Origin: Perna viridis
Taxonomy: Eukaryota
NCBI GenBank assembly: GCA_037379345.1
Contig: CM074515.1
Span: 51,093,743-51,157,742 of the forward strand
Direction: 5' to 3'
Length of the DNA stretch: 64,000 nt
The notes beneath the pieces are model-generated. The model ran no database searches, was not told the origin of the DNA, and worked only from the letters and a program-made list of their open reading frames with translations. Position numbers and translations under genes: made by a program. Shown here piece by piece: positions 15,175-60,039 of this stretch (positions are counted from its first letter, which is position 1; every line of letters begins with the position of its first letter).

Positions 15175-18100
15175 GTTGCAGGTTAAGTGGATAATCTCCT
15201 GTCTTAAATCATTTGATTGATATTTTCAATCTATAATAGTAATGGTCTCTTCAATGAGAGCTTTTTTAATGGTATTGTTGATATATGTCAATAAGCTCTT
15301 GACCGACTGATGTAATATCGTTGTGTAATACTCAAATTTAAGATAATTATTTGGTTGACTTGATGTACGACTTTGTAAGGGAGCAGGTGTCGTTTGCTCG
15401 TGTACTTCTTTGTCATATTGATTTTCACTATCGTGTAGGTGTATTTAAAAGGTCATGCCACTTGTTTTCATTTATGTTCATTCACTCGAAGGTTTCCAAG
15501 TCGAGTTAATTCTCTTTAAATAACAACGCTTTACAAAATAACGCTATTTATAACGAATTCTTTGATCATGTTTCCAGCAACTTCATTCGTCAGATCTCCT
15601 AAGTAATCTCCAAGAAGTGGTTTTCATTCTCCATCTTTGCTTTTGATAGTATGGTATCACAGTAGAGAGCACGGAGTCCAAGCTGTTCAAAGAAACTGTA
15701 CAGTTTTAGTGGAGCCTGAGCTGTGGTATAGGCAGCGTCTGTTTGGTTTGAGGGGGCTTAACTAAGGGATCCTTTTTTTCACTTTCCGGTCAAAGTCACA
15801 TTCCCATTTGCTAACATATTTGTAACCCTAATCTTCTTTGTAATGTTGTTTTGCAATTGTACGCTGCTGTGTGTCTGGCGTAACACCTAAGGCATCCATG
15901 CCAGAAGCATCCATGGAATTCGTAAACCGTTCTATCTGCATATCCATCCACTCTATATGGTCCGATTTATTGTTCTCCTCAGTGCTGAGGCATTCTTAAA
16001 ATGGATCAACAGGTGTTCCATCAATGGCTTCAGTGGTGTCCATGAATAACTGACTGAAGGTTAAACAGGCCTTTCGTAAGATATATACACCAGTTTTACA
16101 GTACTTCTAAAGCTCGTCTTAAAAGTCGAATGTATCTCGTCTGTGTTCCGTCGTACAATGTCATAAAGTTGTCTCTTTCGGCTGGTTTCATGGCCTCTGG
16201 GTCATAATATCGTATGTCTGGTAAGTGTTGTAGCTTGATATCTTCATGTTCCTTCATATTGTACATGTGAGGAAAGTACACCTTATGAATTTCTGTGAAT
16301 CCAAACATCTTAGGACGCTTAGACGGAGGAGTTGGTGGATAGGTCAGTAAATTAATCATTCGTATCTTACATCCTGGCACGTCTATCGTGATGTCCGTTG
16401 GAGTAATCGTCGGTTTCAAACCATTTTTGTACAAGTATTGTAGTATTGGGACGAAATCATATCCTGTAAAGTTATGACACAGCACGGTAGCTCCTTTGAT
16501 GATACCGGAAAATAACCACAAACAAAATGCTCCGCAGATGTTGCAGGAAATCTCTTGATTGACGTCTTTATCTAAGCAGCTCGTACTAATTCTATCAACG
16601 TTTTGGTCAATGTTCATAAGATCTAAAGGTCGATATCTTGCAAAGTATACAATAACCAGGTCGGAATCTATGTTTGTACCGCATCTATTCGTCTTGTGTA
16701 CATTCAAAGGCAAAAATAATGTAGGTCTGCATTTTGCTGTGTCCTGCGTTATGTCCCTCTAGATGGTCATATCACAAACGGTACAGTAGTAAACTCGTGA
16801 ACGGAACCCTTTCATGGTCGTGATGACGTCTAAATGGTCGTCGTTTTGATATGAGTATAGGTTCTCCTCTGCTTCCGGTCGGGATAATTGATTCTGTTAA
16901 AATGTTGCTTCGAAACCACATAAATCTGGTACTCATTCAAATATTTCTCGAATTATATGAGTTCTTCGATTCCACACTTCTGTAGAGGAACCCTCCACAC
17001 GACCATGTAATTCTAGAGCTAGCTCTTCTTGTATTTGTTTTCCTTTTCAGTCGAATTGAATTCCACAGGGAATGATTTTTAGTCGGGCTCTAGCGGTCGT
17101 GATTGATCGAGCGCAACAGATGTAGAATAGTTTCGACTTTGTATAATGGATCGCGTATCGTTCAAAAATTTATCGGTGTCCATGAAATCAACCCTTTTCC
17201 TTCTTTTTCCGGTTGGCATAGCCACATGAATGATCTCAAACGCCAACGTTTCATCCAGTATAAATTCTTCATATGATTGAAGGACACGTTCAATCTCGCG
17301 TAGCAGGAGTTCAGTTCGCCGGTAGGTTGGTTCACTTGAACACAAGGTAGAGTTATTAAAAAAACCAGGGTTGTTAATGGTCACCTTAATCAGGTCCTTT
17401 CGGTTGACGAACTCTGTAAAATCGAATCGAACGGCTTTCGGAAAAATTATAGTATTGATTCTATATTCCCTTCTTCTACTGCTTTAATTTGTTCTTTATA
17501 TTCTGTAGTCGTCGTGTTGAATCTGGCAATGTGCATTCGCTATTGCATGCTTATAGTATACATGTCTTTGATTTTGTCTGACCTGCAGTACTTCTAATCC
17601 ACCCATTTGATGCTGATGATACTCGTGACGTCTAAGGTTATCTATCATGTCGAAGACCATACGACCCACGGTGCAATGAAATTCAACTTCATCCCGATGT
17701 CGTTTAGGTTTTTACACTCCGTTTTGTAGAAGATGTTATGGTTCTTGAGCAGTCTGAAGTATTGTTTCTTATATGTCTTCGATAGAATCAATGCTGATAC
17801 ATGTACACGAATTCGATAACTAATTTATACATGTAGATTAAGTATAGAATGTACCAACGACGTTGACAGCTTGCAATTTTGTTTAAGACTGATGTTTATA
17901 CTCCTGACTTCTACTATTTATACTCAACGCATCGTCGTGTATAAGCTAAAATAAGGCGTTGACGCCTCGAGGTGTTTTGCAAAACTGAATTTTCACCGTG
18001 CACCCCCTCTTTTTTATACTTATTTACAACAATTCGACACTCTTATTTTAATAGATATTATAACAGGCGTTACAATTGGTCGATAAATACATGTACGAAA

Positions 18101-18240
18101 ATGTTTAACAAGTGTTTCCATTGGCCTTTATGTACATGTATCATAACTGCTAACAAGTGTTTTCAATGATAAGTATATACATGTACCAATATTTGTAAAC
18201 GAGTGATTTTATTGGGAAATATATACATGTACCAATATTT
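15175..18240 (-). mobile_element. Decayed Polinton/Maverick-type protein-primed PolB gene with flanks, copy A
   Basis: N-terminal C2H2-like segment (~17620-17700), exonuclease II CHNFTGYDF, KVYFPHMYN, VSR-like DGYA..VYEFHGCFWHGC (~15890-15950), LYCDT (~15660). Large internal deletions. Inverted homolog of 19484-24290. Confidence 0.88.
17887..17922 (-). promoter_or_regulatory. Putative TATA plus initiator core promoter of PolB copy A
   Basis: TATAAATA (17922-17915) followed ~30 nt later by TCAGTC, upstream of the PolB frame; conserved in copy B. Confidence 0.5.
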
Positions 18241-19783
18241 TACCTACAGGAATCTGATATATTTTCAAAGGAAGGCATCATACATGTACCTACATGTAGG
18301 TTGCAGAACTTCTTTAAACCATGTACCGATAATTGAATGATAACACAAATATCAATCACCAATGCGATAGTTCTAAAAAAAAAAAAGAAAGATAATTTGT
18401 AAAATGCTATAGCACGTTTTTGTCTCCGTACTTTTGACAATAAACATAACTAAAGCGTGATAGCCTAAACGAATAGTGATTCAAATACCTCTATATTGAA
18501 TTCTTACTCGATCCGGGAATAAAGATGTTGTCTGCAAAAATATTATTACGTCAATTGTAATGATTCAACATACAGTATATTGAAAAAATCTTATTATAAA
18601 TGATGTTACCTATTACATTCCTTGTTTACTATAAGTCCAAAAGTCTAACAGTAAATTAGTTAATTCAAGTGATCTTTAAGAGTTAATGATCCGAACAATA
18701 AAAAAATTCTGTTCTATAGAATTCGATAGTCGACTAGCCATTCTATCATAATATAGGTTTATGGTCATATTCACGGGCATTCTCTTTTTGAACACATGAC
18801 TTGATGAATGAGTCATTTTGAATGTCTGATAATCGATGAACAAAAATATTTAAAGATTTCCACAGGTTATACAAGATTGTTGATACTCAAATAGTTGTTT
18901 GACAATTCAAACTTACAACGTTACTCTTTGAAAATCTTTGATGTTTTGTATTGATAATAACAGAAAACCTTACGTTGAAATATGTTTAAGAGAATAAACT
19001 TTGGACAATTTGTTCCATAATATCCCTTAATAGCTCTGAATTGAAACTTGTAAAAAAAACTAAATTTACTAAGGTTAACCAATGCTGTTTTTTCCAAAAG
19101 GTATTGTAATTTTTTATCGTTCTGTTTTCTTTGAGAGCTGATGTGATAATGACGAAATCGTTTCGCAACACATAAATTTACTAGATCTTGATTTGATTTC
19201 GATTGAAAGATAAGCGCACATGACATTAAGTCAAGTCCGGACTTGCAACTTGCATTAGCAGTTTACAATAAAATTTTACTTTTCCTTTTGTTCATTCATT
19301 TCGTAGAACAAAGTGTGTTTTTTCTTTCAAAATGTTGAAACAGCAAGGTTTTGTTTATAATTTGTACCCTTGATCGTTTGCTATTCAATGCGTAACTTTC
19401 CAGTAAACAAAAGTTGAAGCAAAACTGAAATTTTCTTTCAAAAATGACTGTGTAAGAGTAATCAATTCATGGAGAGCTAAATTATTGGTACATGTATTTA
19501 TTCCCAATGAAATCACTCGTTCACAAATATTGGTATATGTCATTTAAAATACTTGTTAAAAATTATGATACATGTATATATAGGCAAATGGAAACACTTG
19601 TTAAAACTCATCGTACATGTATTTATCGACCAATCAGAACGCTCGTTATAATATCTATTAAGTAAAGTATCGAACTATTGTCAATTAGTATAAATAAGAT
19701 GGGTGCCATGGTGAAAATTCAGTTTTGAAAACACCTCGAGGCGTCAACGCCTTATTCCAGCTTATACACGACGATGCGTTGAG

Positions 19784-19818
19784 TATAAATAGTAGAAATC
19801 AGGGGTATAAACTTCAGC
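19784..19818 (+). promoter_or_regulatory. Putative TATA plus initiator core promoter of PolB copy B
   Basis: TATAAATA at 19784-19791 and TCAG ~30 nt downstream; mirror of 17887-17922. Confidence 0.45.
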
Positions 19819-22425
19819 CTTAAACAATATTGCAAGCTGTCAACGTCGTTGGTACGTTCTATACTTAATCTACATGTATAAATTAGTTAATGGATCAATG
19901 GAATTTCCCATAACTCTAACGTTTGTTCAAGTGCCCCAATTTTCCGGCTAAATCCTGTTACACGAGATTTAACGTGTTCTTCAATCCCAGAAGAATGTAC
20001 ATTGGATGAGACGTTGGCGTCTGAGATCATTTATGTGGCTATGCCAACCGAAAAAAGAAGGAAAAGGATTGATTTCATAGACACCGATAATTTTTTGAAA
20101 GATATGCGGTTCATTATACAACTTTGTAACAAAGACAACCTCTATTGCGCTCGAGAAATCGTGACTGTTAAAGTCCGACTAGATAATCATCCCCGGTGGA
20201 ATACAATTCGACTGGGAAGACAAATACAAGAAGAGCTAGCTCTAGAATTACATGCTTGTGTGTGTGTGTGTGTATGGGGGGGGGGGTCCTCTACTGAAGT
20301 GTGGAATCGAAGAAATCAAATAATTCCAGAAATACTTGAATGAGAACCAGATTTATGTGGTTTCAAAGGAACATTTTAACAGAATCAATTATGCCAGACC
20401 GAAAGCAAAGAGGAAACTATATAAATATTCCCACGACGACCATTTTCACGTCATCACGACCATGAAAGGGTTCCGTTCACGAGTACTGTTTGCCAAAAGA
20501 GATATGACCACTTAGAGAAAGATGCTTGTAATGATGCATATCAATGCTGTAATAAAACAAACCAAGTCGACAAAGAAGAGAAACGGATCAACTGTATCAA
20601 TTGCGATCGGTACTTTAAGGTGAAAGAAATGCTACTATCTTTTCAAAAAGCAGACGACCGGAGGATATTCTATTTGCAAAACGTCAAACTCTCAACAATC
20701 TATTGGTCAAACACGTCCACAAATGTGGGGAAAAGTATTGTAAAACATGCAAGCACTACTTGGGTGATAGCCACCATAGTTATATCATACCCTGTGGATA
20801 ATGCAAGATGCACACTTACATTATTTTCGGCTTTGAATGTACACAAGACGAACAGGTGCAGTGCAAAAATGGAATCTGACCTGGACTCAATGTTATTGTA
20901 AACATTGCATGAAATCGACCTCTGGATCTTATGAAATTCGACCAAATCTTTGTGTTGTGCATGAAGTTTGTACGAGATGTTGAGAGAAAGATGTCAACCA
21001 ACCTGTGACAACTGCGGAGCGAACGAACTCATATTTAAAGGGGAAGAAACAACAGAAGCATTTTGTTCGTGGTTAGTTTCTGATATCAACAAAGGAGCTA
21101 CCGTGCTTTAAATGATATGATTCCGTCCCAGTACTGCAATACTTGTACACAAAATGGAGTGAAATCGACGATAATTCCAAATGGTGGAAAAGAACATGGC
21201 AATAGAAGTGCCTAGATGCAACATACGAATGACCGATTCACTGAACTATCTACCATCTACTCTGTCTAAGCTTCATAAAATGTTTTGATTCACAAAACTT
21301 CATAAGGGATACTGTCCTCACATGTACAATATGAAGGAACATGAAGATATTAAGCTACAGCACTTACCAGACAAACGATATTATAACACAGATGCAATGA
21401 AACCAGCCGAGTGAGACAACTCTATGACATGGTACGAGGAACATGGGATACCTTCGACTTTCAAGACGAGCATTTGAAGTACTTTAAAACAGATGTATAC
21501 GTCTTGCGAAAGGCCTGTTTAACCTTCCATCAGTTATTCATGGACATCACTGAAGCCATTGGCAGAACACCTATAGATCCATTCAAAGAATGTATCAATA
21601 TTGCATCGGCCTGCAACCTCGTATTCAGATCTAAATTTCGGTAATCAAGACCATTGGACTCATGCCAGCCATCGGATATCGCCCCGGGTATAAACATTCG
21701 ATTAAAGCCATGCAGTGGCTCAAATACATGTCAAAATCAATAGGCATACATATTCAACATGCACAGCACGGAGGAGAACAATACATCGGACCTTATAGAG
21801 TGGATGGATATGCAGATGGAACGGTTTACGAATTTCATGGATGCTTCTGGCAATGTTTCCTTAGATGTTTCGCCAGAGACACATTTAATCCCGTCAACGA
21901 TATGACTATGAACGATTTACACCAACATACAATTGAAAAACAACGATACACAAAAGATCAGGGATACAAATATGTATCCTCCTCGAACCAACAGACGCAT
22001 TTGCAGGAGGACGTACGGAAATATTTGCGTTATATCATGAAGTGTCAGAAGATCGGATCGACTACTATGACGTCACCTCCTTATACCCCTTCATCAACAA
22101 GACTCTGGAAAAGTACCACTCGGCTATCCTGAAATAATTACGGAGAATTTTAAAGGCATCGAGAACTACGAAAGATTGATCAAATGTAGAATCCTGACAC
22201 CAAGAGGACTTCACATACCAGGTCTTCTTGTCAAAATTAACAACAAACTGATGTTTCCGCTAGGCAGGACATGTGCCGAAAACCATTAAACCGAGTGTTA
22301 CCATACCGACGACGAAAGGACATTAAATGGAACATAGGTAACAGATGAAATAAAGAAAGCTCTGGAGATAATATATGACACTAAAAAGATTTATGAATTC
22401 CGGCATTTTGAAGACACAGATAGAG

Positions 22426-22939
22426 TTTGTTTTGTTTGTTTGTTTGTTGGGGTTTAACGTCCGAGTAGCAATATTTCAGCTATATTCAGACAATGAACAT
22501 GAAATGGATATAATGAACATGAAATGAAAAAAAAAGGATGGGTCACAAGGATAATAGGGTCGATAAATTTTGATTGCCACTGGAAAAAGGGGGGATGGGT
22601 AAGATCGGGCAATTTAGCCTCCTGTGGCGGAGCGCAAAGGTTCCTACTCCTATCGAATACCACAGCAGGGTTCTTTAACGTGCGAGGAACGTGGTATCTT
22701 TCCCAACACGGTGCACCACTATGGTTTGCGGTCAGGTTTTCCGTATTATAGCTTGACAACCCCAGCATGTAACACGCCAGGGGTACCCCATTCCACCACC
22801 TGGGGCACACATCCCAGTTGCTCTGTGGGCAGAGCGCCCTAGCCCCCGACTAAGGTTCTGAGCACTATTTAGTCGCCTTTTACGAGAAGCTTAGCGCTGC
22901 TGCAGGCCTATTCTTTTAACACCCGGACCTGCACGGGGC
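22426..22939 (-). mobile_element. Full-length SINE copy 2 (514 bp), inserted in PolB copy B
   Basis: 11-bp TSD CACAGATAGAG (22415-22425 and 22940-22950); collinear with 11425-11949; same 5' end GCCCCGTGC; (AAAC)n tail. Confidence 0.93.
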
Positions 22940-25829
22940 CACAGATAGAGATACGAACCTAAAACCAAAAGCGGTGGCCTATGTACAGATTCTGTAAATA
23001 CATTTCTACACCTCAAGCAGGAACCGAGTGGCTGGCCAGAATGGTGTCAGACAGAAAAAGAGAAGGCACGAATTTACCACGATTACAATTACGATGACAA
23101 TTACCACGAAAAAGAGGGAATTTTACTAGAGTACAAGAATCTCGGTATGAGAAACTTGGCAAAACTCAAATTGAACAGGTTTTGGGGAAAATTCGGACAG
23201 CCATCGAACATATGTCAACTAAAATACGTAACAGACACGGCTGAGTACTTTGATATGCTACCAAACGATAAGATCGACGTAACTGGGATCAACTGTGTTA
23301 CAGTGGTAACAATGGTGAAATGGTAGAAATGCGATGAAAGTTTGAGGGAGAGTTTGTTGAAACATCAAATCGAACAAATGTAGTCATCGCTGCCTATACC
23401 ACAGCTCAGGCTCGACTGAAACTGTATACCTCCTTGAAACAGTTTGGACCCCGTGCTCTCTACTGTGAAATCGACTCCATAATATTCAAAAACAAAGAAG
23501 GAGAATTGAAACCGACCCTTGGAGATTATTTTGGAGACCTGACGAATGAAGTACTCGAAAACAATATAAAAACTTTCCGTGACAGGCGGCCCGAAAATCT
23601 ATGCATTCAATTCATCCAAACCACAAAATGATGGAACAATGCCCTGCTATAAAGTGCGTGGAATTACGTTAAATTTCAAAAACGCCTTTTAAAGTAACTT
23701 CAAATTACTGAAAAAAAATGATAGTGAACGGATCTGAATGCATCACAGTAGAAGATGACAGAATAATTAGAAGGAATGAACAATTATTGAAAGATTTTCG
23801 AATGGTCTTCGATAAACGCTCTGTTAAGAAGGACTCGTACCAAAGCTATCCGTATGAATATTGGATTGTAAAGACATTGTGGGGTCTCCGACCCTCATTG
23901 TATCATATGACCAGGAAATACACTAACGAATCTGTTATAAACTGTTGTTATTAAAAGAGGGGTAACTCGACTGGGAAACCTGCGGGTGAATGAAATAAAA
24001 TGTTATGACCTTTCAAAAACACTTAACGACACAATGGTGAAAATCAATAAGACAAAGTATACAAGCAATCGACACCTGCCCGCTTACAAAGTTGCATATC
24101 AAGTCAACTAAATAATTAACTTAAATTTGAATATTACACAACGAGATTACATCTGTCGGTCGGGTGTAAATTGACACATACCAGCATTACCATTAAAAAA
24201 AGCTCTCAATAAAAAAACCCATTACTATTGTAGATTGAAAAGATCAATCTATAGTTTTAGATAGGTTATTATCCCTTTAACCCGACAATTGATGACTAGC
24301 AGCATTCTTTGTTGCCAGTCTTCGATTTTTTTTTTAAGTTTCATTCATTCCTATACGTTAAACTATTATTGAGCAAGTCCATGGGCTAGGAGGGTCCACC
24401 ATGCACCCCCATCCCCCACCCCCCACTTATCAACTTCATGGTGATTTGTAGGTACCTTTATACCTCCCATTACCGAATCGATTTGTCGCCAAAGAATAGT
24501 ATGGGATTCTTTTTCAGTATAAGCCTATATGTGTACCCCAATGGGTCAAAAAGCCAAGATTGTTGTGACTCAATTGGTTGAGGGTCTAAGCCTTCCTAAA
24601 CTTAACATATTTAGACACTATCCAAATGTCTCACCTTTACAATGATACCAAGAAAGTTGCGGTAGCACTTAGGGTTTGGTGGTAAAATGATATAAATGTA
24701 CTCCTACCCTGCCAAAAAATTGCTTAAATTTACATATTTTTCAATGTCAAAACCCCCAGAGTATTAATGCTTCTGTAAAAAAAAATGACATATTTGGTAC
24801 TTTCTGTTTAGTACATCACAATTTATACTTCTATGGTTCTATTGACGATTTTTGGCTATTTTCGTAGTCAGAAAAAAGGCGAAAAATGGGAATTTCGATT
24901 TTTTGGTCAACAGTCACATAAATTCGACTCAACAAGTTATGACTCGACTATAACGTCTCAAATTTAGTATCACGCGATAGATAATTTAATTTCCTTAAGA
25001 AAGAAAGCACGAAAGACTACTTTTCAAGAGAGGATTTTCAAAAAATGTAAAAAATATTACCCTACCCCTAGAAAACTGGTCTCAGTATCAAACAAAATTT
25101 TCATTCACAGCTTACTGACATTGTAGAACATATTTTAGGCATTCGTATTTAAGATATTGAAGTTTCGAACATGTCTGCATCAATTCAGGCGCTTAGATTT
25201 TCCTTTTAGGATGACAATTACTATAAAATCGGAAAAAAGGGGATTTTTTTAAGAATTTCAGAATTTAACATATGAATATTAGAAAATTGATTTTATATGG
25301 TTTAAGTTCAAAATAATACTGTCACAATATATTCACATCATTTAAATACGGCATACATCATTAATGTGTTTGCTGTTTAATACATATATAATCAGAAAAT
25401 TGTGCCCACACCCACAGAACGACCAAATATTTTCACGTATGATTAACTGTGTTATGAAGACCGTTTTCGCTGAATATAAAACTGTCATGTGCATGGTAAC
25501 GCTGCCAAACCCGGAAACCATCTGATCATAGAGACATGTCAGGAATAAATTAAAGTATCAATGTAGTTTGTAACCTTGACGTTAATATTGAGACTAGCAA
25601 GAACAGTGACTCCAAAGGTTAACATAAAAATCGATATTTTGTCTGTGGTATATTTATCGTCTACTGAGTTGGGAATGTATCACTTTCTCGACCAGAGAAA
25701 CGTTAAGTAATATAAGGTGACATTTTTACATTTCTCCGAAAATCCTACTTCAAAAACAAGTTTGGCGCAGTTAAATGTCTCATGTGAAAACAGTTAGATT
25801 CTAAACAATCGTATTTTTTTTTTTTTTTT

Positions 25830-29569: not shown

Positions 29570-30255
29570 TCATATAATAACAAGAATCACATTTGGTTTG
29601 TGTAAATAACAGAAACGCAACACGGACTAAAAACTTGGAGCATAGACCAAGGACACCGGTAGGGTAAGCGTCCTTTGCTTTCCTAGAAACACCCACCGAG
29701 TATTGCTCATAAAAAGTCAAGGCCGGGGTAGAAGTAAGAGGAAGGGAAAACTATGACACGTTGAACAAATCAGTTTTCATGGTGCATATGGACACACCGT
29801 AACGATCCACGAGTTCATGATGACGACCATGAAATTTCTGTAGTGATGATTTCAATCTTGTAGCAACATAGCCCTGTTCCAGAAGCCTAATTGTAAGAAG
29901 TCTAGCGCGATACAGAAAGTCTGCGTAGTTACCCCAAGCTCTGGCATAATGTATCAGTTATGATATGAAAACTCCATAGGCAGATGCTGAAGGGATGTTG
30001 TCATAGATGAAAGGAAAGTTGACAATACTGAGTGAAAAGTCATCACGTTTGTCGTTTAGTTTGGTCAATAGTTTTACTTTACCATCGATCTCTAAGTGTA
30101 GATCAAGATATGAGGCTGACTTCACAGTGTCTGTAGTATCCTTTATTGCAAGTTCTTTGGGGTAGATGGGATGTATCAAATCCACTTAACTTGGATTGTT
30201 TAACAATAACTCGTCATCTATATAGTGGTAATTAAGATTATAAGATCTCGCTAAG
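29570..30255 (-). mobile_element. Penelope-like element 3' part (RT C-terminus plus 3' UTR), probably N-terminal-EN (Naiad-type)
   Basis: YIDD region, SASYLDLHL, KLNDKRDDF...VNFPF..NIP...AYGVFIS, LLEQGY, FHGRHHELVDRY then stop with no GIY-YIG domain following. Confidence 0.88.
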
Positions 30256-36800: not shown

Positions 36801-39800
36801 CTTATTTTGATCTGTGTGTAAGGTAATTATGTGCACACTTTTTCGTGTAAATGCTCTCCGGTCACAGCACATACCAAATATTTAATTAATTTATTTGGTT
36901 TTTGTGGATTAAAAACAAAAACAAACAAAATAATTACGAAGAAGAATCGTTCAGATTTGTCTTTTTAAAATGTACCTATTCCTCATTCACATAATTTATT
37001 TAGCGTTAAGCGCAAAAACAGTAATTCTGAAGGAATCAAATGGGGTTCAAACAATTATTCACATTCTTTTATCTACAAAAAGCATAGCATACCATAAGGA
37101 ATATGATTATTTTGTTATGTACGATGAATTGAAGTAACAATGTTCAAATCAATTCGAAAGTAACAGATATATTCAGCAACTATTTATCCTGTTATAATTC
37201 AAAACAAATATAATGTGATAATTCAAACCAAATATAACTTGAAACTGCACGAATGCAGAATTGATTCAGATTTATTAATAAACGATACGTCTGAGCATCT
37301 GCTCAATGTGCATGCATATTAGTCGATACGAGACTGCTTTTTGCGTTTAACATGATCAGACAGGGCTTGAACTTATCAAGTAAAAACAAATTGAACAACA
37401 TCGGCCTTCTTAACTCTACCAAATACATATAGCTTTCATTTCCAGTTTATTAACGTCGGAAACATTATACAGATACGTTCTAGATCATGTGGGTATTTTG
37501 ACTCTTACCGTAGAATACGCATCACACAATACCAGTTGTATTTGACCGTTTGCGTATGAACTGTGAGAAGTGAAAACAATATCAAATCATTTTAATGCTC
37601 AATAGTATAACACAACCCGTAATTATACCCCACGCAATGACATTGCGGAGGATAAAATGTTTTTGACTGGTCACTCAACACTACTGATCAACTGTCTGTG
37701 CAACTCCTCTAAAACCCTTGGACATCGTTCAATATCCGGTAGGATGTATTGTTACAAGTTGAAAATGTGCATACAATACCCTGTTAAGATTCGACTTATT
37801 TTGTAGGAGTAAAAACTTAAAGTAATTTCAACAGCTCATAATGAGAAAAGACCTTATAAGCGCAACTCTTCGAAACAACTTGTTTGATCCCTTCCCATTT
37901 TAGTGGAGTCCGAGTTACTCATCTACTTTTGTTACTTTGTACGTATAATATAAGTGATTTTACGTTTTTTTTTTTTGTGTGTGTCTGTTTCCTATGTCTT
38001 GTCTTTGTCCCAGGATTACTTTTTTTTATTTCCGCTGGAATCTTGGTTCCCTTGATTACTCTTCCATATAAAGTAAGATAATTTGTCATAAGATACGATA
38101 CCGTCATTTAGGTTCGACTTTATAGCACTATGGTTATTTTCATAATTTTATAATGGAAAAAGACCTTGTCAGCGCAACTAGTCTCAAACAGATTTATCCA
38201 TGCATATTTGCCACTTTGCGTGCGGGTAACAATTTTCCAAAAAACAAAACACACAACAAAAACACAAATAGACTCGGGGGAAGTGTTATTAAATAAGGAG
38301 TTAAAATAAATAGACTACAAGTATCTAAACATATTTTAGATACTTTCTCACGGGCAACAAGTTTGCGTAAAGTATACAGATTTTGCAATCTAGGGTACCA
38401 TATAAATATAAATGATATTTGGTTTTTTTTCTACAGTTTGATAATATGTAGTCATTTCAATAAAAGGCAATCTACTCTTAAACTATTGTTTGTTATAAGA
38501 CAGAACTTTAATACCCACTATCTAAGCTACTAAAGAAAAATAGTTTTATAAGTGAAACAGATAATTACTGTTTTAATAACAGTACCTTTAGATATTTAAC
38601 CAAAATGTAGGACCAGAACAAATAAAGTGAAGGACGAGAATCACTACACCGAAATACCTGATATATGCTCCAACTTTGTATTACACCAGCAAAATAACAT
38701 TGTGCACGTAATGAAACTGTATGTAGTCGAGTTTCATAAAGACATTCCATCCACAAGCATTGCATATGCTAGTACCTTTTGTAAGTTAGTAAAAAAGAGT
38801 CAATGCTAATTATAGTTCATATCTACGAATGTGCCGTATTTCTAACCTTTCAATACTTTTATGTTCTTTATATGTAGGTTGGGGCATCATAATCACAATT
38901 TGCTATGATTCATTTAGTACTACTTCTATCAAGGAAAACCTCTTTTGTCAATGTATAAGTAACTCACTTTGTGTTCCTAAGTAAACTAGGTATAGGTAGA
39001 ATTTGTCGCCAATGTACACTGAAGATATGTCTGGCAAACTCGTAATGTCATTTCTGGCGTCGAAACGATCCGCTTTTAGGTACATTGCAACATCGTTTAC
39101 GGCATCAGGTCGACTAACTGTTGCTGTTTCTCTACAATTTGAAACTTTATACAGTTATGATCCCGACGTCTCTGAATTTACTAAATCATATTATTCATGT
39201 TTACATTTGTATGTATTTTTAAGTGATGAGTATTTTCGCAAAGCCTTGGTTTACTTTAGAAATATTTCATTGAATATTTGCTCTTTTGCTTAACACACAG
39301 CGGTGTCAAGTTGTTGATATAAAGGGCATTATAAAGTTTATAACAAGAGTTCCCTATACATTAAAAAAAGCATTTAAAATAGAAATTACATCATAAGGTA
39401 ATGTATTTATTTATCGACAACTTTTTAAAATACTCCCCAACGCCGGTTGCGACATGGACCAGTAAACTGACATTGCGCTCCGCCTACGGATTGGGTAATA
39501 TCAGTCTTCTTGGTCCATATCACTACCCTTGGGCAGTCCGCATTTTTCGATGTTGCCCATACAATCATATACTTTTCTGTAGTTTTTTAGTTTTTATGTA
39601 CCATTCCTCCTATTAATGGAATTTTGTCTCGATACCCAAGACTTGCCTTTTTAGGTTAAAAAACATGCAATAGGTATATATATTAAAATTATGGCAATAT
39701 GATAATTTTGGTAGTTTCAACAGCTACAATTCATGCATGGCTAGATATTTACCTTGCCATCAAATGTGACAGTTGTTCATCTTATAAACTTCAATTTACC

Positions 39801-55830: not shown

Positions 55831-58191
55831 AAACTTTAAATCATTTAAGGGCACTTTTATTCTTCCTTCGAAATCCTTTTAATGTTTCGAATGCCATTAA
55901 ATAAGATAAAAGTTATAGCCAAAAATGTATCGGAAAAAAGAAATGCTCGTCCTGTTCTTAAATCAACCCCTCGATCTTCCGGCGAAAAATCACTCATGAG
56001 TAACATGTTTATTTTTCATTCGTCAAATGTTAGTGCTTTCTTTGTAACCGTGTCGATCGTGTCGATTTTAAAAGAAACGTGTTTTAATTTATACATAACC
56101 TGTATAAATAACTGATTTAAGACTTTCAACAAAGAAAGATGTTGGAAAACTACGACGTTCAGGGTTAGAAGAGATATTTTACAAATTAATAATTTTAGAA
56201 ATGTGAAAGAAATATGTTACAAAAAAAAAAAAAAAAAAAACAGAAACATTATTAAGCAAAAAAAGATACGTACAAACTGCAAGTTACAGTGAAAAAAATG
56301 CATTTCACAAATAAATATTTAAACAATCTTCGATTAACAAAGGAAATACAGAGAACAAATAAGCAAGTAACAGAGTTAAAAGAAACGCATGAACATATTT
56401 ACGGTGGATATCGCCTTCCATAATGAAAAGGAGCGTGTATCGGTTCTCTGTAAAATATCTTTGAATGGAATTTTTTCTTCTTTTCCATTGCTTGTGTACT
56501 ATAATAGTTCAAGGAGTGATGAAGTTGAAATGGTTTATGCTACAATGTAATAAAAGATGTTAATTGTCTTTTGGTTCTCAAGCTTTTTCATAATCATTAT
56601 CTGATTAAGATGTCCACGAGAAAACCATACAAAACCGTCCGAAAATGATATTAGCAATTACGTATAAACTTTAGTGCATCTGGTAGGATCCCATGAGAAA
56701 CTTATAATTGAAAAACAATTTTTAAATGAAAGATGACGGAGATATGACCGTCATTTTGATGTAAGGGTTTTCCCGTAAAAATGGGAATTTTCATGGCTGA
56801 GACATGCAAAAGAAGGTCCCAAATTAGGGATTAAGCCTATAATTGCCCTTATCTAAACCAATACCTTTCAGCGAAGTGTGATAAACTCTAACGAACATGA
56901 CAAATATATTGGTTCTAATAATGACCTTGACAAATTTATTTGACCTTGAACTTTGTCAAAATTTTTAGAAAATTGTTTCTTCTACCACATTTCAATGCTC
57001 TGTTTTTCCTAAAAAGCTGACTTGTTTATAACCAATAAGGTGCACCCTTTTTTCCTATCAAGATAGGCCTTTGATATTTGGCATGTTGGTAGGTACAACT
57101 TCCAGATTATGTATTGACTACAGGGATTGGTGACAACTGACCTTGAACTATGACCTTCAGGAAAAATTTAGGCTTCAACAAACGTGAGGAATCTGACAAT
57201 ACAATTGTAATATAGTAGCCGCATTGATAAAGGATGGACTCAGACACAAACATTCAATTAACAAAGGTTGAAAGGAAACCTAATAAATCAGATAGTAAAC
57301 CAGGCGTTATTAATATATCGCTTAACAGTGCATTGTGTTGAAAACAAAGAGATCATTGAAAGACTCGTCAAAGTCAAAATAAACAATATGATAAACAGAA
57401 TAGACAGTGGCTCTGGAATCCCCTATCCCAGGTCGCGCGGCTAATCATCCCCACTTTCCGGTTTTACTAATTACCGCACAAAAACCGATACAACAGACAA
57501 GAAAGGACACAAATACGAGAAGTACAAATTTCAAAAGTTGGTAATTGGTAATATTTGTAAAATACTACCATGTCTTAGGATTTTTTTTTATAACCAAACT
57601 GTTTTTAACGCTGGGAGTTTTAGATTCTAGTGAAAATTGAAACTTAAACAAACTTTCAAAAATTGTAAAATATTTTTAACTGTAATCATACATTTGTGTT
57701 TCCCAACATGTAAAAACTGAATGTCAATCTTTACTTCTGTTTTCTGGTGTATAAGCTGTTATCATTATTTAAACCGTACCCAACTTCATACACATTTTCA
57801 AATTTTGTTTCATTTAACCTTTTTCCCAAATGTTTAAAGCTGTCCAAAGTTACTTTGCATTAACCATCCAAACGTATTTTAAATGCATTTATCCTACACT
57901 GTTATAATACTGAAATAAAACCATTTTCAGCTTAAGTAGATAATTTTCTTGATAAGATTTTCCAAAACTAAAGCATTTTTATCAATTTGAATTTTTTTGC
58001 AAATTTGTTTTGGTTTAAATTACTCCTCTTCACTTCCTGTTTATCATTACTAAAATATAAATGGATGACGATTTTGACTGATAGTTGTGTTATATGAAAT
58101 ATGCTTAACTCATCTAAGGTTTCTTGACACATCACTGCAAGAACTTAATTCCCTGAATGGCATTTTATTACCAAACATCTTCCCGTAACAA

Positions 58192-58640
58192 CACAGACTT
58201 TCTGTATCGTGCTAGACGTTTTACAATTATGCTTCTGGAACAGGTTATGTTGCTGCAAGATTGAAGACAACACAACTGAAGTAGATGGTTATCATCATGA
58301 ACTCGTGGATCGTTACTGTGTGTCTGTCTGCACCATGAAAACTGATTTGTTTAATGTGGCATAGTTTTCCTCTCCTCTTTCGTTTACCCTGGACTTGAAT
58401 TTTAATGACTAATTCCGCGGTTGCTTTAAGAAAAAAAAGAGGACGCTTACCCTTCCAGTACACCTGGCCAACCCTCAGCTTTTAGTGAAGTCCGAGTTGC
58501 TCATTTACTTTTGTTACTTTGTATTATTTTGGTTATTTTATGATATTTGTTGTGTGGGTCTTTTTTCCATGTCTGGTCCTTGTCTCTGGATAACATTCTT
58601 TTGATTTTCGCTAGAATCTTGGGTCCCTTGATTACTGTTT
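58192..58640 (+). mobile_element. Penelope-like 3' fragment (RT C-terminus plus 3' UTR)
   Basis: CTTCTGGAACAGGTTATGTTGCTGCAAGATTGAAG...CATCATGAACTCGTGGATCG matches the reverse complement of 29800-29930; shared 3' end CCCTTGATTACT. Confidence 0.88.
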
Positions 58641-59028: not shown

Positions 59029-59470
59029 AAAGAGTAATCAAGGGAACCAAGGTTATATCCGTAATCAAAAGAATGTAATCCAGGGACAAAAGACCAGACA
59101 TGGAAAACAGACATACACAACAAAGAACATAGAGTAACTAAAACCATACATACAAAGTAACAAAAGTAAATGAGCTACTCGGACTCCACTAAAAACTGGG
59201 AGCATGGACCAGGTGCACCGGTAGAATAAGCGTCCTCGGCTTTTCTAGAAACACCCGCCGAGTTGCTCATAAAAAGTCAAGTCCCGGTAGACAAACGAGG
59301 AAAGGAAAACTATGACCCGTTGACTAGATGAGTTTTCATGGTGCATATGGATACACCATAACGATCTACGAGTTCATGATGACAACCATAAAACTTCTGT
59401 AGTGATGACTTCAATCTTGTAGCAACATAACCCTGTTCCAGAAGCCTATTTGTTAGAGTTCTAGCGCAAT
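59029..59470 (-). mobile_element. Penelope-like 3' fragment, best-preserved 3' UTR
   Basis: RLLEQGYVATRLKSSLQKFYGCHHELVDRYGVSICTMKTHLVNGS* (stop 59312-59310), then shared UTR ending GGTTCCCTTGATTACTCTTT. Confidence 0.9.
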
Positions 59471-60039
59471 ATCTGGTCAATCTATATATCCATGTTAAAA
59501 TCAGGCAGATCCTATGATATGGTTTGTACAGGGTAAATTACATGCATATCCCATTGAATTGTTAATTTCAATGTAATGTTTATATCATCTGTATCTCAAA
59601 TAGCAAAAAAATGATTTGTTTAAAACGACAATGAATGGATATACAAACGATTTTAAATTTCCCCGACAAAGCAACAAATTTGTACACAAAAAAAAAATTA
59701 TCCCCCTTTTTCAATGAATTGTAATGTTTTCTATGTTTTTTAATTCTCTTTGACCGTTGCAGTTAAACAAAACCCCAAACTCAACTTTGTGATATGAAAT
59801 AGATGAAACCTTTTTAAAACATAATTTGCATGGACACTCTCTTAAGACATTGTCAATATGGTTGGTGATATAAATGACACAAGAAATTCTCAGAACATTG
59901 ACAAGTACAGAAAAAAATACCAAAGAAATGGTGTAATGAAGAACTGAAATATGCCAGGATAAAATATAATTGCATTCATTAATCTATATCAGATTCTTGC
60001 AGAAAAAGACCAACCACCAGGTACTGTATCATCATAACT

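Follow-up and report, generated by a model that had tools for sequence, protein, structure and literature searches.

What occupies the place of the hammerhead ribozyme in those Penelope-like elements (PLEs) that have no hammerhead? The question is raised by a truncated element copy in the window, by which we mean the whole 64,000-nucleotide stretch of Perna viridis DNA analysed here. The initial annotation had recorded a pseudoknotted RNA after the stop codon of this copy and had proposed that it is either a rewired ribozyme or an element that binds the reverse transcriptase (RT). Both are kept below as predicted roles, while the HDV-like form given to the ribozyme is abandoned. The location had been correctly recognized: the RNA lies in the pseudo-LTR (pLTR), upstream of the RT start sites, where other PLEs bear their hammerhead.

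The host element and its copies

The host of the motif is a Naiad PLE, as had been supposed. Naiads are characterized by an N-terminal endonuclease region, CxC and DKA motifs, partial tandems, a tail and the lack of a canonical hammerhead (PMC8557442). Both motifs are present upstream of the RT in ORFs of the family, in the form of DCSC and PADKA (longer copies, Penelope-type RT), and neither the last 700 nt nor the first 437 nt of the family element contains the hammerhead sequence CUGANGA. A GIY-YIG endonuclease N-terminal to the RT is suggested by an upstream frame of locus L286, which resembles the endonuclease region; the L286 copy is broken, and Pfam gave no match to it. The insertion features of Naiads are found as well, with 5' truncation, partial tandems (the pLTR) and a tail of 30-40 bp; L286 is itself a partial tandem, in which a truncated copy is followed by a full body. 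A first look at the 723-Mb P. viridis genome gave 4247 DNA candidates of the family. Across 1.14 Mb of untargeted sequence, 109 of 181 matches end within 6 nt of a single fixed 3' end situated 139 nt past the motif, besides a scatter of further ends 29-52 nt upstream. The copies in the window are the following.

59031-59471, minus strand: 5'-truncated Naiad copy of 441 nt (RT C-terminus and 3' UTR), 95% identical to young family members, with the fixed 3' end at 59031
59310-59312, minus strand: RT stop codon of this copy
58405-58508, plus strand: older, decayed motif, carried by the second truncated Naiad copy at 58179-58636
29609-29708, minus strand: decayed motif in a third Naiad copy (aligned over 29626-30254)
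37893-38062, plus strand: short Naiad copy cut off inside the motif, with only the P4/P0 3' side retained

In 589 RNA reads, the 3' end of the element shows a back-joint of 38 nt (L286 4224-4261), which represents repeated tails. Near full-length Naiad units form a tandem array with a period of ~5.1 kb at C6:47133000-47152999 of the P. viridis genome (L304 and L305). At random P. viridis loci, among 102 copies whose 3' end is intact, 9 have clean internal deletions and 3 have tandem or back jumps, which suggests frequent template switching. The 5' start of the Naiad body, just beyond the end of the pLTR, carries a conserved block with a TATA-like box at its end (L286 4283-4406; L063 1629-1750). 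This block, also seen in published oyster, ark-clam and hemichordate consensus sequences, is possibly an internal promoter or a second RNA element. One Naiad-like RT ORF (L075 1-3132) continues in frame into a ubiquitin hydrolase domain at its C terminus (Pfam UCH, E 8.7e-31); similar C-terminal extensions occur in L076-L079, and these loci gave no match to the RNA model described below. Elsewhere in the window, 15181-24282 holds two degraded inverted repeat copies, one frame of which weakly matches a Polinton-like, protein-primed DNA polymerase B (E 0.009).

Conservation and wiring of the RNA motif

The motif lies on the minus strand, 39 nt after the RT stop (40 nt had been estimated), and the window copy folds with z = -3.2. 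Comparison across families identifies it as a real, deeply conserved and apparently undescribed RNA family of ~100 nt in the 3' UTR of Naiad PLEs. Its parts, in the order of the RNA, are these.

59258-59270, minus strand: 5' strand of P0, the closing helix of 13 bp; two-sided changes at 13 of 13 pairs
59252-59257, minus strand: 5' strand of P1 (C-GGGUG), invariant in 11 of 11 rows
59242-59251, minus strand: palindrome 1 (pal1), 10 nt, predicted intermolecular helix
59237-59241, minus strand: J1, (R)RCAG with an invariant C; private A>C at 59238 in the window copy
59232-59236, minus strand: 5' strand of P2 (pseudoknot)
59224-59231, minus strand: J2, conserved unpaired GCUYAC-YC; CC>UU at 59226-59225 in the window copy
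59216-59223, minus strand: palindrome 2 (pal2), 6-8 nt, predicted intermolecular helix; last base a purine in all families seen
59210-59215, minus strand: 3' strand of P1 (CACCU-G)
59204-59209, minus strand: 3' strand of P2, immediately after P1; one bulged A in the window copy's family
59183-59203, minus strand: P4 hairpin of 5 bp with a variable U-rich loop
59170-59182, minus strand: 3' strand of P0; private mismatch at 59176

The alignment has 11 rows: one is the window copy, and the others represent 10 families, of which 8 come from metagenomes and two from P. viridis (the young family and an older one). These families are mutually related (the 10 RT proteins in the tree are 57-82% identical to one another), and L084 and L333 were chosen as representatives for being the best copies. 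Two near duplicates (L057, L061) were left out, as was L074, which was misaligned in MAFFT and stands outside the pair counts. The metagenome loci, found by RT alignment, are 80 of the 205 confirmed, most of them from one host. Mean identity is 78% in the motif core, against 53% and 60% in the 48-nt flanks, about the level of shuffled flanks (51% and 57%); the core is thus far better conserved than the adjacent UTR, contrary to a doubt raised with the initial annotation. Within the young family the motif diverges by 7.4% and the flanks by 8.7-9.6%, a small difference, as expected of neutral copies.

A model built from the 11 rows matched 58 of the 80 metagenome loci; among the 22 without a match, many contigs end early and some families apparently lack the motif (L066, L075-L080, L082, L097). 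By eye, and in parts of the PMC8557442 consensus file, the motif was recognized in at least 11 of 55 published Naiad consensus sequences: Naiad-1_Chem and Naiad-2_Chem (Clytia), CGi, Sglo, Olur, Tgra, Pmar, 2_Skow, 1_Pfla, 2_Pfla and Cmel (toadfish), where the names CGi, Tgra, Pmar, 2_Skow, 1_Chem and Cmel are taken from file order. The bearers thus span a hydrozoan (Clytia), bivalves, hemichordates and a fish (the toadfish). The motif is apparently absent from the Naiad-3_Chem consensus, inspected by eye over its full length. A second conserved structured stretch occurs in the 3' UTRs of Clytia Naiad-1/2/3_Chem, upstream of the motif in two and alone in the third; nematode Naiads have long hammerhead-like cores (PMC8557442 supplement); and two older Naiad families of the P. 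viridis genome (L457-L495) bear the motif with different palindromes and P2 sequences.

Among the viral contigs scanned, nothing useful was found. A pattern scan of prokaryote genomes returned 120 stretches; among the 80 listed, one likely host contaminant (L170) was used and the rest appear chance-like, as judged from the pattern. Rfam gave 0 matches in the 64-kb window at E<=1 and, in 10 loci at E<=10, 12 weak matches with no ribozyme among them; neither search returned a match to the HDV-type models. A description of the motif was not found in the excerpts of literature covered, which included PMC8557442, bioRxiv 10.64898/2026.07.22.740005, PMC10085705 and PMC5408937. The main text of PMC8557442, as excerpted, has 0 matches for HDV; it reports SECIS elements and loose hammerhead cores in Naiads and not this motif, though its consensus file contains it. 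"New" refers here to the fold, which has no family match; the mode of working has precedents in dimeric hammerheads and in Ty1.

In the revised model, 92.5% of 412 cells are paired over the 11 rows, with 92.7-100% for P1, P2, P4 and the palindromes across families. The covariation score is 0.55, against 0.23 for shuffled alignments (0/500) and 0.08-0.12 for slid controls; this shuffle test does not amount to a probability, as the sequences are related and the structure was derived from them, and parsimony counts are the better measure. Two parts of the earlier drawing stand. The outer stem (59270-59258 with 59182-59170) is 13 nt long and 92% paired, and the pairing of GGGUG-U with G-CACCU is present on the minus strand as the invariant P1. 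The remaining helices had to be rewired. GGAC pairs with the five bases right after CACCUG (95.5% of cells paired, two-sided changes at all 5 pairs, 13 parsimony changes) and not with the distal GUCC (65.9%); in the 11 published consensuses, read by eye, the resulting P2 has 5/5 pairs in 9 and 4/5 in 2. Likewise, the supported hairpin is GCUCC/GGAGU (92.7%), whose loop varies freely in length and sequence, rather than UCCA/UGGA (72.2%). The ACC/GGU stem is 72.7% paired, with its first pair broken in 8 of 11 rows, and where "GG" had been placed directly after GCACCU, 8 of 11 families have GA, the second base of which covaries as part of P2. Its conservation over divergent families, together with this covariation, puts the motif far beyond chance.

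The core words found again in the remaining window copies had been taken as support, but are uninformative because these copies are 80-86% identical members of one family; the copy at 29.6 kb has no CACCUGG. Similarly, the alternative hairpin CUCGGC/GCCGAG depends on the A>C at 59238, which is private to the window copy (1 of 36 copies) and breaks the invariant CAG. Given this substitution, the two changes in J2 and the one in P0, the window copy is a damaged member of its family. Since the 3' strand of P2 comes directly after P1, P4 is not nested and the HDV order P1/P2/P3/P1.1/P4 fails. All pairs of a nested, HDV-like double pseudoknot with a distal P2 can be drawn on the one window family; set against the 92.7-100% of the revised helices, however, the poor pairing of its distal P2, P3 and UCCA/UGGA across families leaves that structure hardly credible.

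The invariant unpaired bases are RCAG in J1 and GCUYAC in J2, which, as sequences, would fit a catalytic core or a protein site equally well. The candidate pairings CAG/CUG, GAGCA/UGCUU and J1 GC with J2 GC were each broken in several families (by eye), and a likeness of J2 to the telomerase template was not conserved.

Palindromes and the predicted homodimer

The defining feature of the motif, a pair of palindromes that vary between families, had gone unseen in the initial model, whose "P3" is a palindrome. The search pattern placed no constraint on the positions of pal1, which in all 11 aligned rows is self-complementary (5/5 pairs). When mapped on the RT tree, which covers 9 families, it has accumulated 17 parsimony changes, none of which breaks a pair; as background, 45 of 4249 flank 10-mers are self-complementary. 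At its centre the bases are adjacent, with zero loop, and cannot pair in cis; four pair types are seen. In the 59 that could be parsed among 111 model matches, mostly decayed, pal1 has 5 pairs in 38, 4 in 14 and fewer in 7. The second palindrome, pal2, precedes CACCUG; 8 of the 10 representatives carry it in perfect form, with one compensated change and 2 decayed copies in the count. It varies little in the tool-counted rows, and its covariation comes mainly from by-eye reading. Both palindromes were seen by eye in 11 of 11 published motif-bearing Naiad consensuses, where pal2 centres include CCGG, GGCC, GUAC, CUAG, CAUG and UCGA.

The aligned motifs hold 36 G-U cells against 3 A-C cells, and in an older family the centre is U-G in 23 of 26 copies and C-A in 1 of 26. 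Decay of CpG would give C-A as often as U-G; the excess of G-U therefore places the pairing at the RNA level, on the sense strand, and the same count rules out the antisense strand as the functional RNA. Since the central pairs are impossible in cis and G-U is tolerated, an RNA homodimer is implied, and on these comparisons two motif RNAs very probably pair through their palindromes. The pal1 duplex is calculated at -9 to -18 kcal/mol, versus +4.1 to -1.2 for its own 3-bp hairpin. Cofolding placed pal1 in trans in 6 of 8 cases and pal2 in 2 of 8, by a method that cannot model the pseudoknot. In one divergent member known from a single contig (L074 2333-2423), a long cis hairpin stands at the position of pal1 and is possibly a natural half-monomeric form.

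Palindromes are typical of sites for dimeric DNA-binding proteins, and the form of pal1 and pal2 would suit such a site, for example one for the element endonuclease. Their sequence nevertheless changes freely while the symmetry is kept, G-U is tolerated where A-C is not, and both lie inside a covarying RNA fold. We regard a role as DNA sites as very unlikely.

Candidate functions of the predicted dimer

Our best explanation, put forward tentatively, is that the motif is a dimer-dependent self-cleaving ribozyme of undescribed fold that stands in place of the hammerhead. Catalysis is favoured because the motif occupies the PLE hammerhead position and uses the same palindrome trick, PLE hammerheads acting as dimers via a palindromic helix III (PMC4209133). 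One could envision that pal1 pairs with pal1' (10 bp) and pal2 with pal2' (6-8 bp) in trans. Both palindromes exit from the top of P1, and J1-P2a-J2 of molecule B would land on P1 of molecule A. P2 would most simply form between the partners, giving two domain-swapped cores that a pair of short, parallel duplexes would connect; in the equivalent monomer, two hairpins would stand at the top of P1. A tandem transcript could supply the partner from its following pseudo-LTR, or the partner could be another RNA within the RT particle, and cleavage would occur only in multimeric RNA, as in the dimeric PLE hammerheads.

The likeness to these hammerheads comprises the PLE host, the pseudo-LTR, the position upstream of the RT start, and a palindrome that replaces a helix in an RNA working as a dimer (PMC4209133). 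The motif differs in having no CUGANGA/GAAA core (CUGANGA occurs in 1 of 11 motifs, GAAA in 2 of 11) and in its two palindromes, pseudoknot, closing three-way junction and length of ~100 nt. Dimeric minimal hammerheads of Penelope-like elements were reportedly the subject of work by Lunse et al. in 2017. A palindrome in the place of a helix within the pLTR marks a shared way of working, not membership of the hammerhead class.

No known catalytic signature was recognized in the motif, which has no Rfam ribozyme match and no twister, hammerhead or HDV signature. Like the motif, twister has a multiloop whose central part forms pairs with the strand immediately 3' to its inner helix (PMC5408937, 10.1101/2024.07.11.603121); the motif differs by the absence of the N-A-A cleavage loop, P4/L4 CYCAAG, the second pseudoknot and the conserved G-A-G-R-G. 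A strict L4 CYCAAG occurs in 0 of 11 motifs and G-A-G-R-G in 4 of 11, at non-homologous places; the loose L4 pattern is uninformative, as it matches 8 of 11 motifs and 9 of 11 on the other strand. The Rfam twister-P5 model found no match in the P. viridis genome, where the control was silent too, and none in 10 loci. Pistol, twister-sister and hatchet gave no Rfam match (64-kb window, 10 loci), and their helix order, compared by descriptions, is different. As to SECIS elements, the window gave no Rfam match, the AUGA sequence lacks conservation and is wholly base-paired within P0, and the open frames of 712-729 aa have no UGA.

In HDV-like ribozymes, as in the motif, P1 includes a G-U pair and forms a pseudoknot with P2, a strand that leads into P2 holds an invariant C, and the helix orders are related by circular permutation (PMC13635239, PMC8495972). 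They differ from it in that the motif's P2 3' strand adjoins P1, with no nested P4, P1.1 or conserved L3, and in its extra closing helix and two predicted trans helices. The features of membership are thus lacking for nested order and for P1.1/L3 (GA after CACCU in 8 of 11), and a catalytic C before the distal strand is found in 0 of 11. It is nonetheless conceivable that the motif is a circularly permuted, dimer-completed relative of the HDV fold. R-CACCUG would then be the 5' strand of HDV P1, the 3' strand of motif P2 the 5' strand of HDV P2, motif P4 would be HDV P3, and pal1 in trans HDV P4; RCAG would take the place of J4/2, with its invariant C as general acid, and cleavage would take place just before the purine at 59216, on its 5' side. 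The helix order would map onto HDV if the chain were opened at P3/P1. In 11 of 11 loci a purine precedes CACCUG, and in 6 of 11 rows this base could form a G-U pair with the nucleotide that follows GGGUG; the invariant C sits between a P1-stacked helix and P2, as does C75. However, the HDV ribozyme requires P1.1 and L3 (PMC13635239), and the motif has no P1.1 and, with its freely variable P4 loop, no conserved L3. The seventh P1 pair would, moreover, compete with both palindromes and is impossible in several published consensuses (by eye), and 1 genomic 5' end lies at the predicted base. We judge this relationship improbable.

Genomic 5' ends show no pile-up at any single base; 0 of 69 random 5' ends fall on the G of GGGUGU, where the initial annotation had suggested looking for insertion boundaries, and 4 lie within 3 nt of it (1.4 expected). 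One RNA-seq run contains both strands, with no piled read starts or ends. These negative tests weigh little, yet give no support, because the hammerhead of the anole PLE leaves no RNA-seq ends either and is dispensable for insertion in vitro (PMC11167929). In that element the cut is made 85-92 nt upstream of the RT start and needs the protein (PMC11167929).

The same 69 ends bear on the idea that the fold blocks nucleases or controls expression, in that a knot stalling 5'-3' decay or RT would yield short tail RNAs. The stretch 3-13 nt upstream of P0 contains 10 of them, against 3.2 expected (nominal p 0.002), and the 3' arm of P0 contains 11, against 4.0 expected. Both intervals were, however, chosen post hoc and are U-rich (microhomology with AT-rich targets), the upstream one holds 3 of 35 further copies, and the two conserved palindromes would be left unexplained; we consider this function quite improbable. 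More generally, the 5' truncation points at random P. viridis loci show a modest excess just outside the motif ends (element offsets -242 to -252 and -134 to -153), which was not reproduced in flank copies.

The dimer may instead serve a purely non-catalytic purpose, as a signal for dimerisation and RT docking that recruits a dimeric RT-endonuclease and sets an internal RT start 100-140 nt downstream, in the manner of Ty1 PAL1/PAL2. We consider this only slightly less likely than a ribozyme of new fold. The structural support for a dimer is identical, and no cleavage footprint appears in the genomic 5' ends or the RNA-seq run. The fixed 3' end 139 nt downstream of the motif, with the ends 29-52 nt upstream, would fit such a start. 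For the protein of the anole PLE, dimerisation and nicking of both strands have been predicted (PMC11167929), and Ty1 dimerises via two palindromes near a Gag-bound pseudoknot (PMC6844567). Against a docking signal, the anole PLE requires only RNA near the RT start, its hammerhead being dispensable (PMC11167929); head-to-head paired insertions, expected if both RNAs were primed together, number 0 of 102; and some Naiad relatives have no motif near the RT end (the 22 of 80 metagenome loci without a match, many with contigs ending). Palindromes beside a pseudoknot in a retroelement RNA, tied to dimer formation, are what the motif shares with Ty1 PAL1/PAL2 and retroviral dimer-initiation sites (PMC6844567), and by analogy the Ty1 pair is the nearest non-catalytic counterpart. 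The Ty1 and retroviral sequences serve in packaging and lie in the 5' part of LTR elements that encode Gag, whereas the motif belongs to the 3' UTR of a Gag-less PLE, each of its palindromes is self-complementary and both flank an invariant core. Functions other than a ribozyme of new fold, a docking signal or a permuted HDV relative are unlikely.

Returning to the ribozyme, the chance is nearly even, in our estimation, that the motif represents a new class existing only as a domain-swapped homodimer with two intermolecular helices, distributed from cnidarians to chordates and possibly the first natural circular permutation of HDV. If so, it would be a notable addition, as a eukaryotic ribozyme candidate that combines strong covariation with thousands of copies in a single genome, and would answer why Naiads thrive without hammerheads. 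Should the RNA not cleave, its two covarying trans helices would still belong to a retroelement that has no Gag and whose RT is more closely related than any other to that of telomerase, and the formation of RNA dimers and the docking of RT in PLEs would become directly testable.
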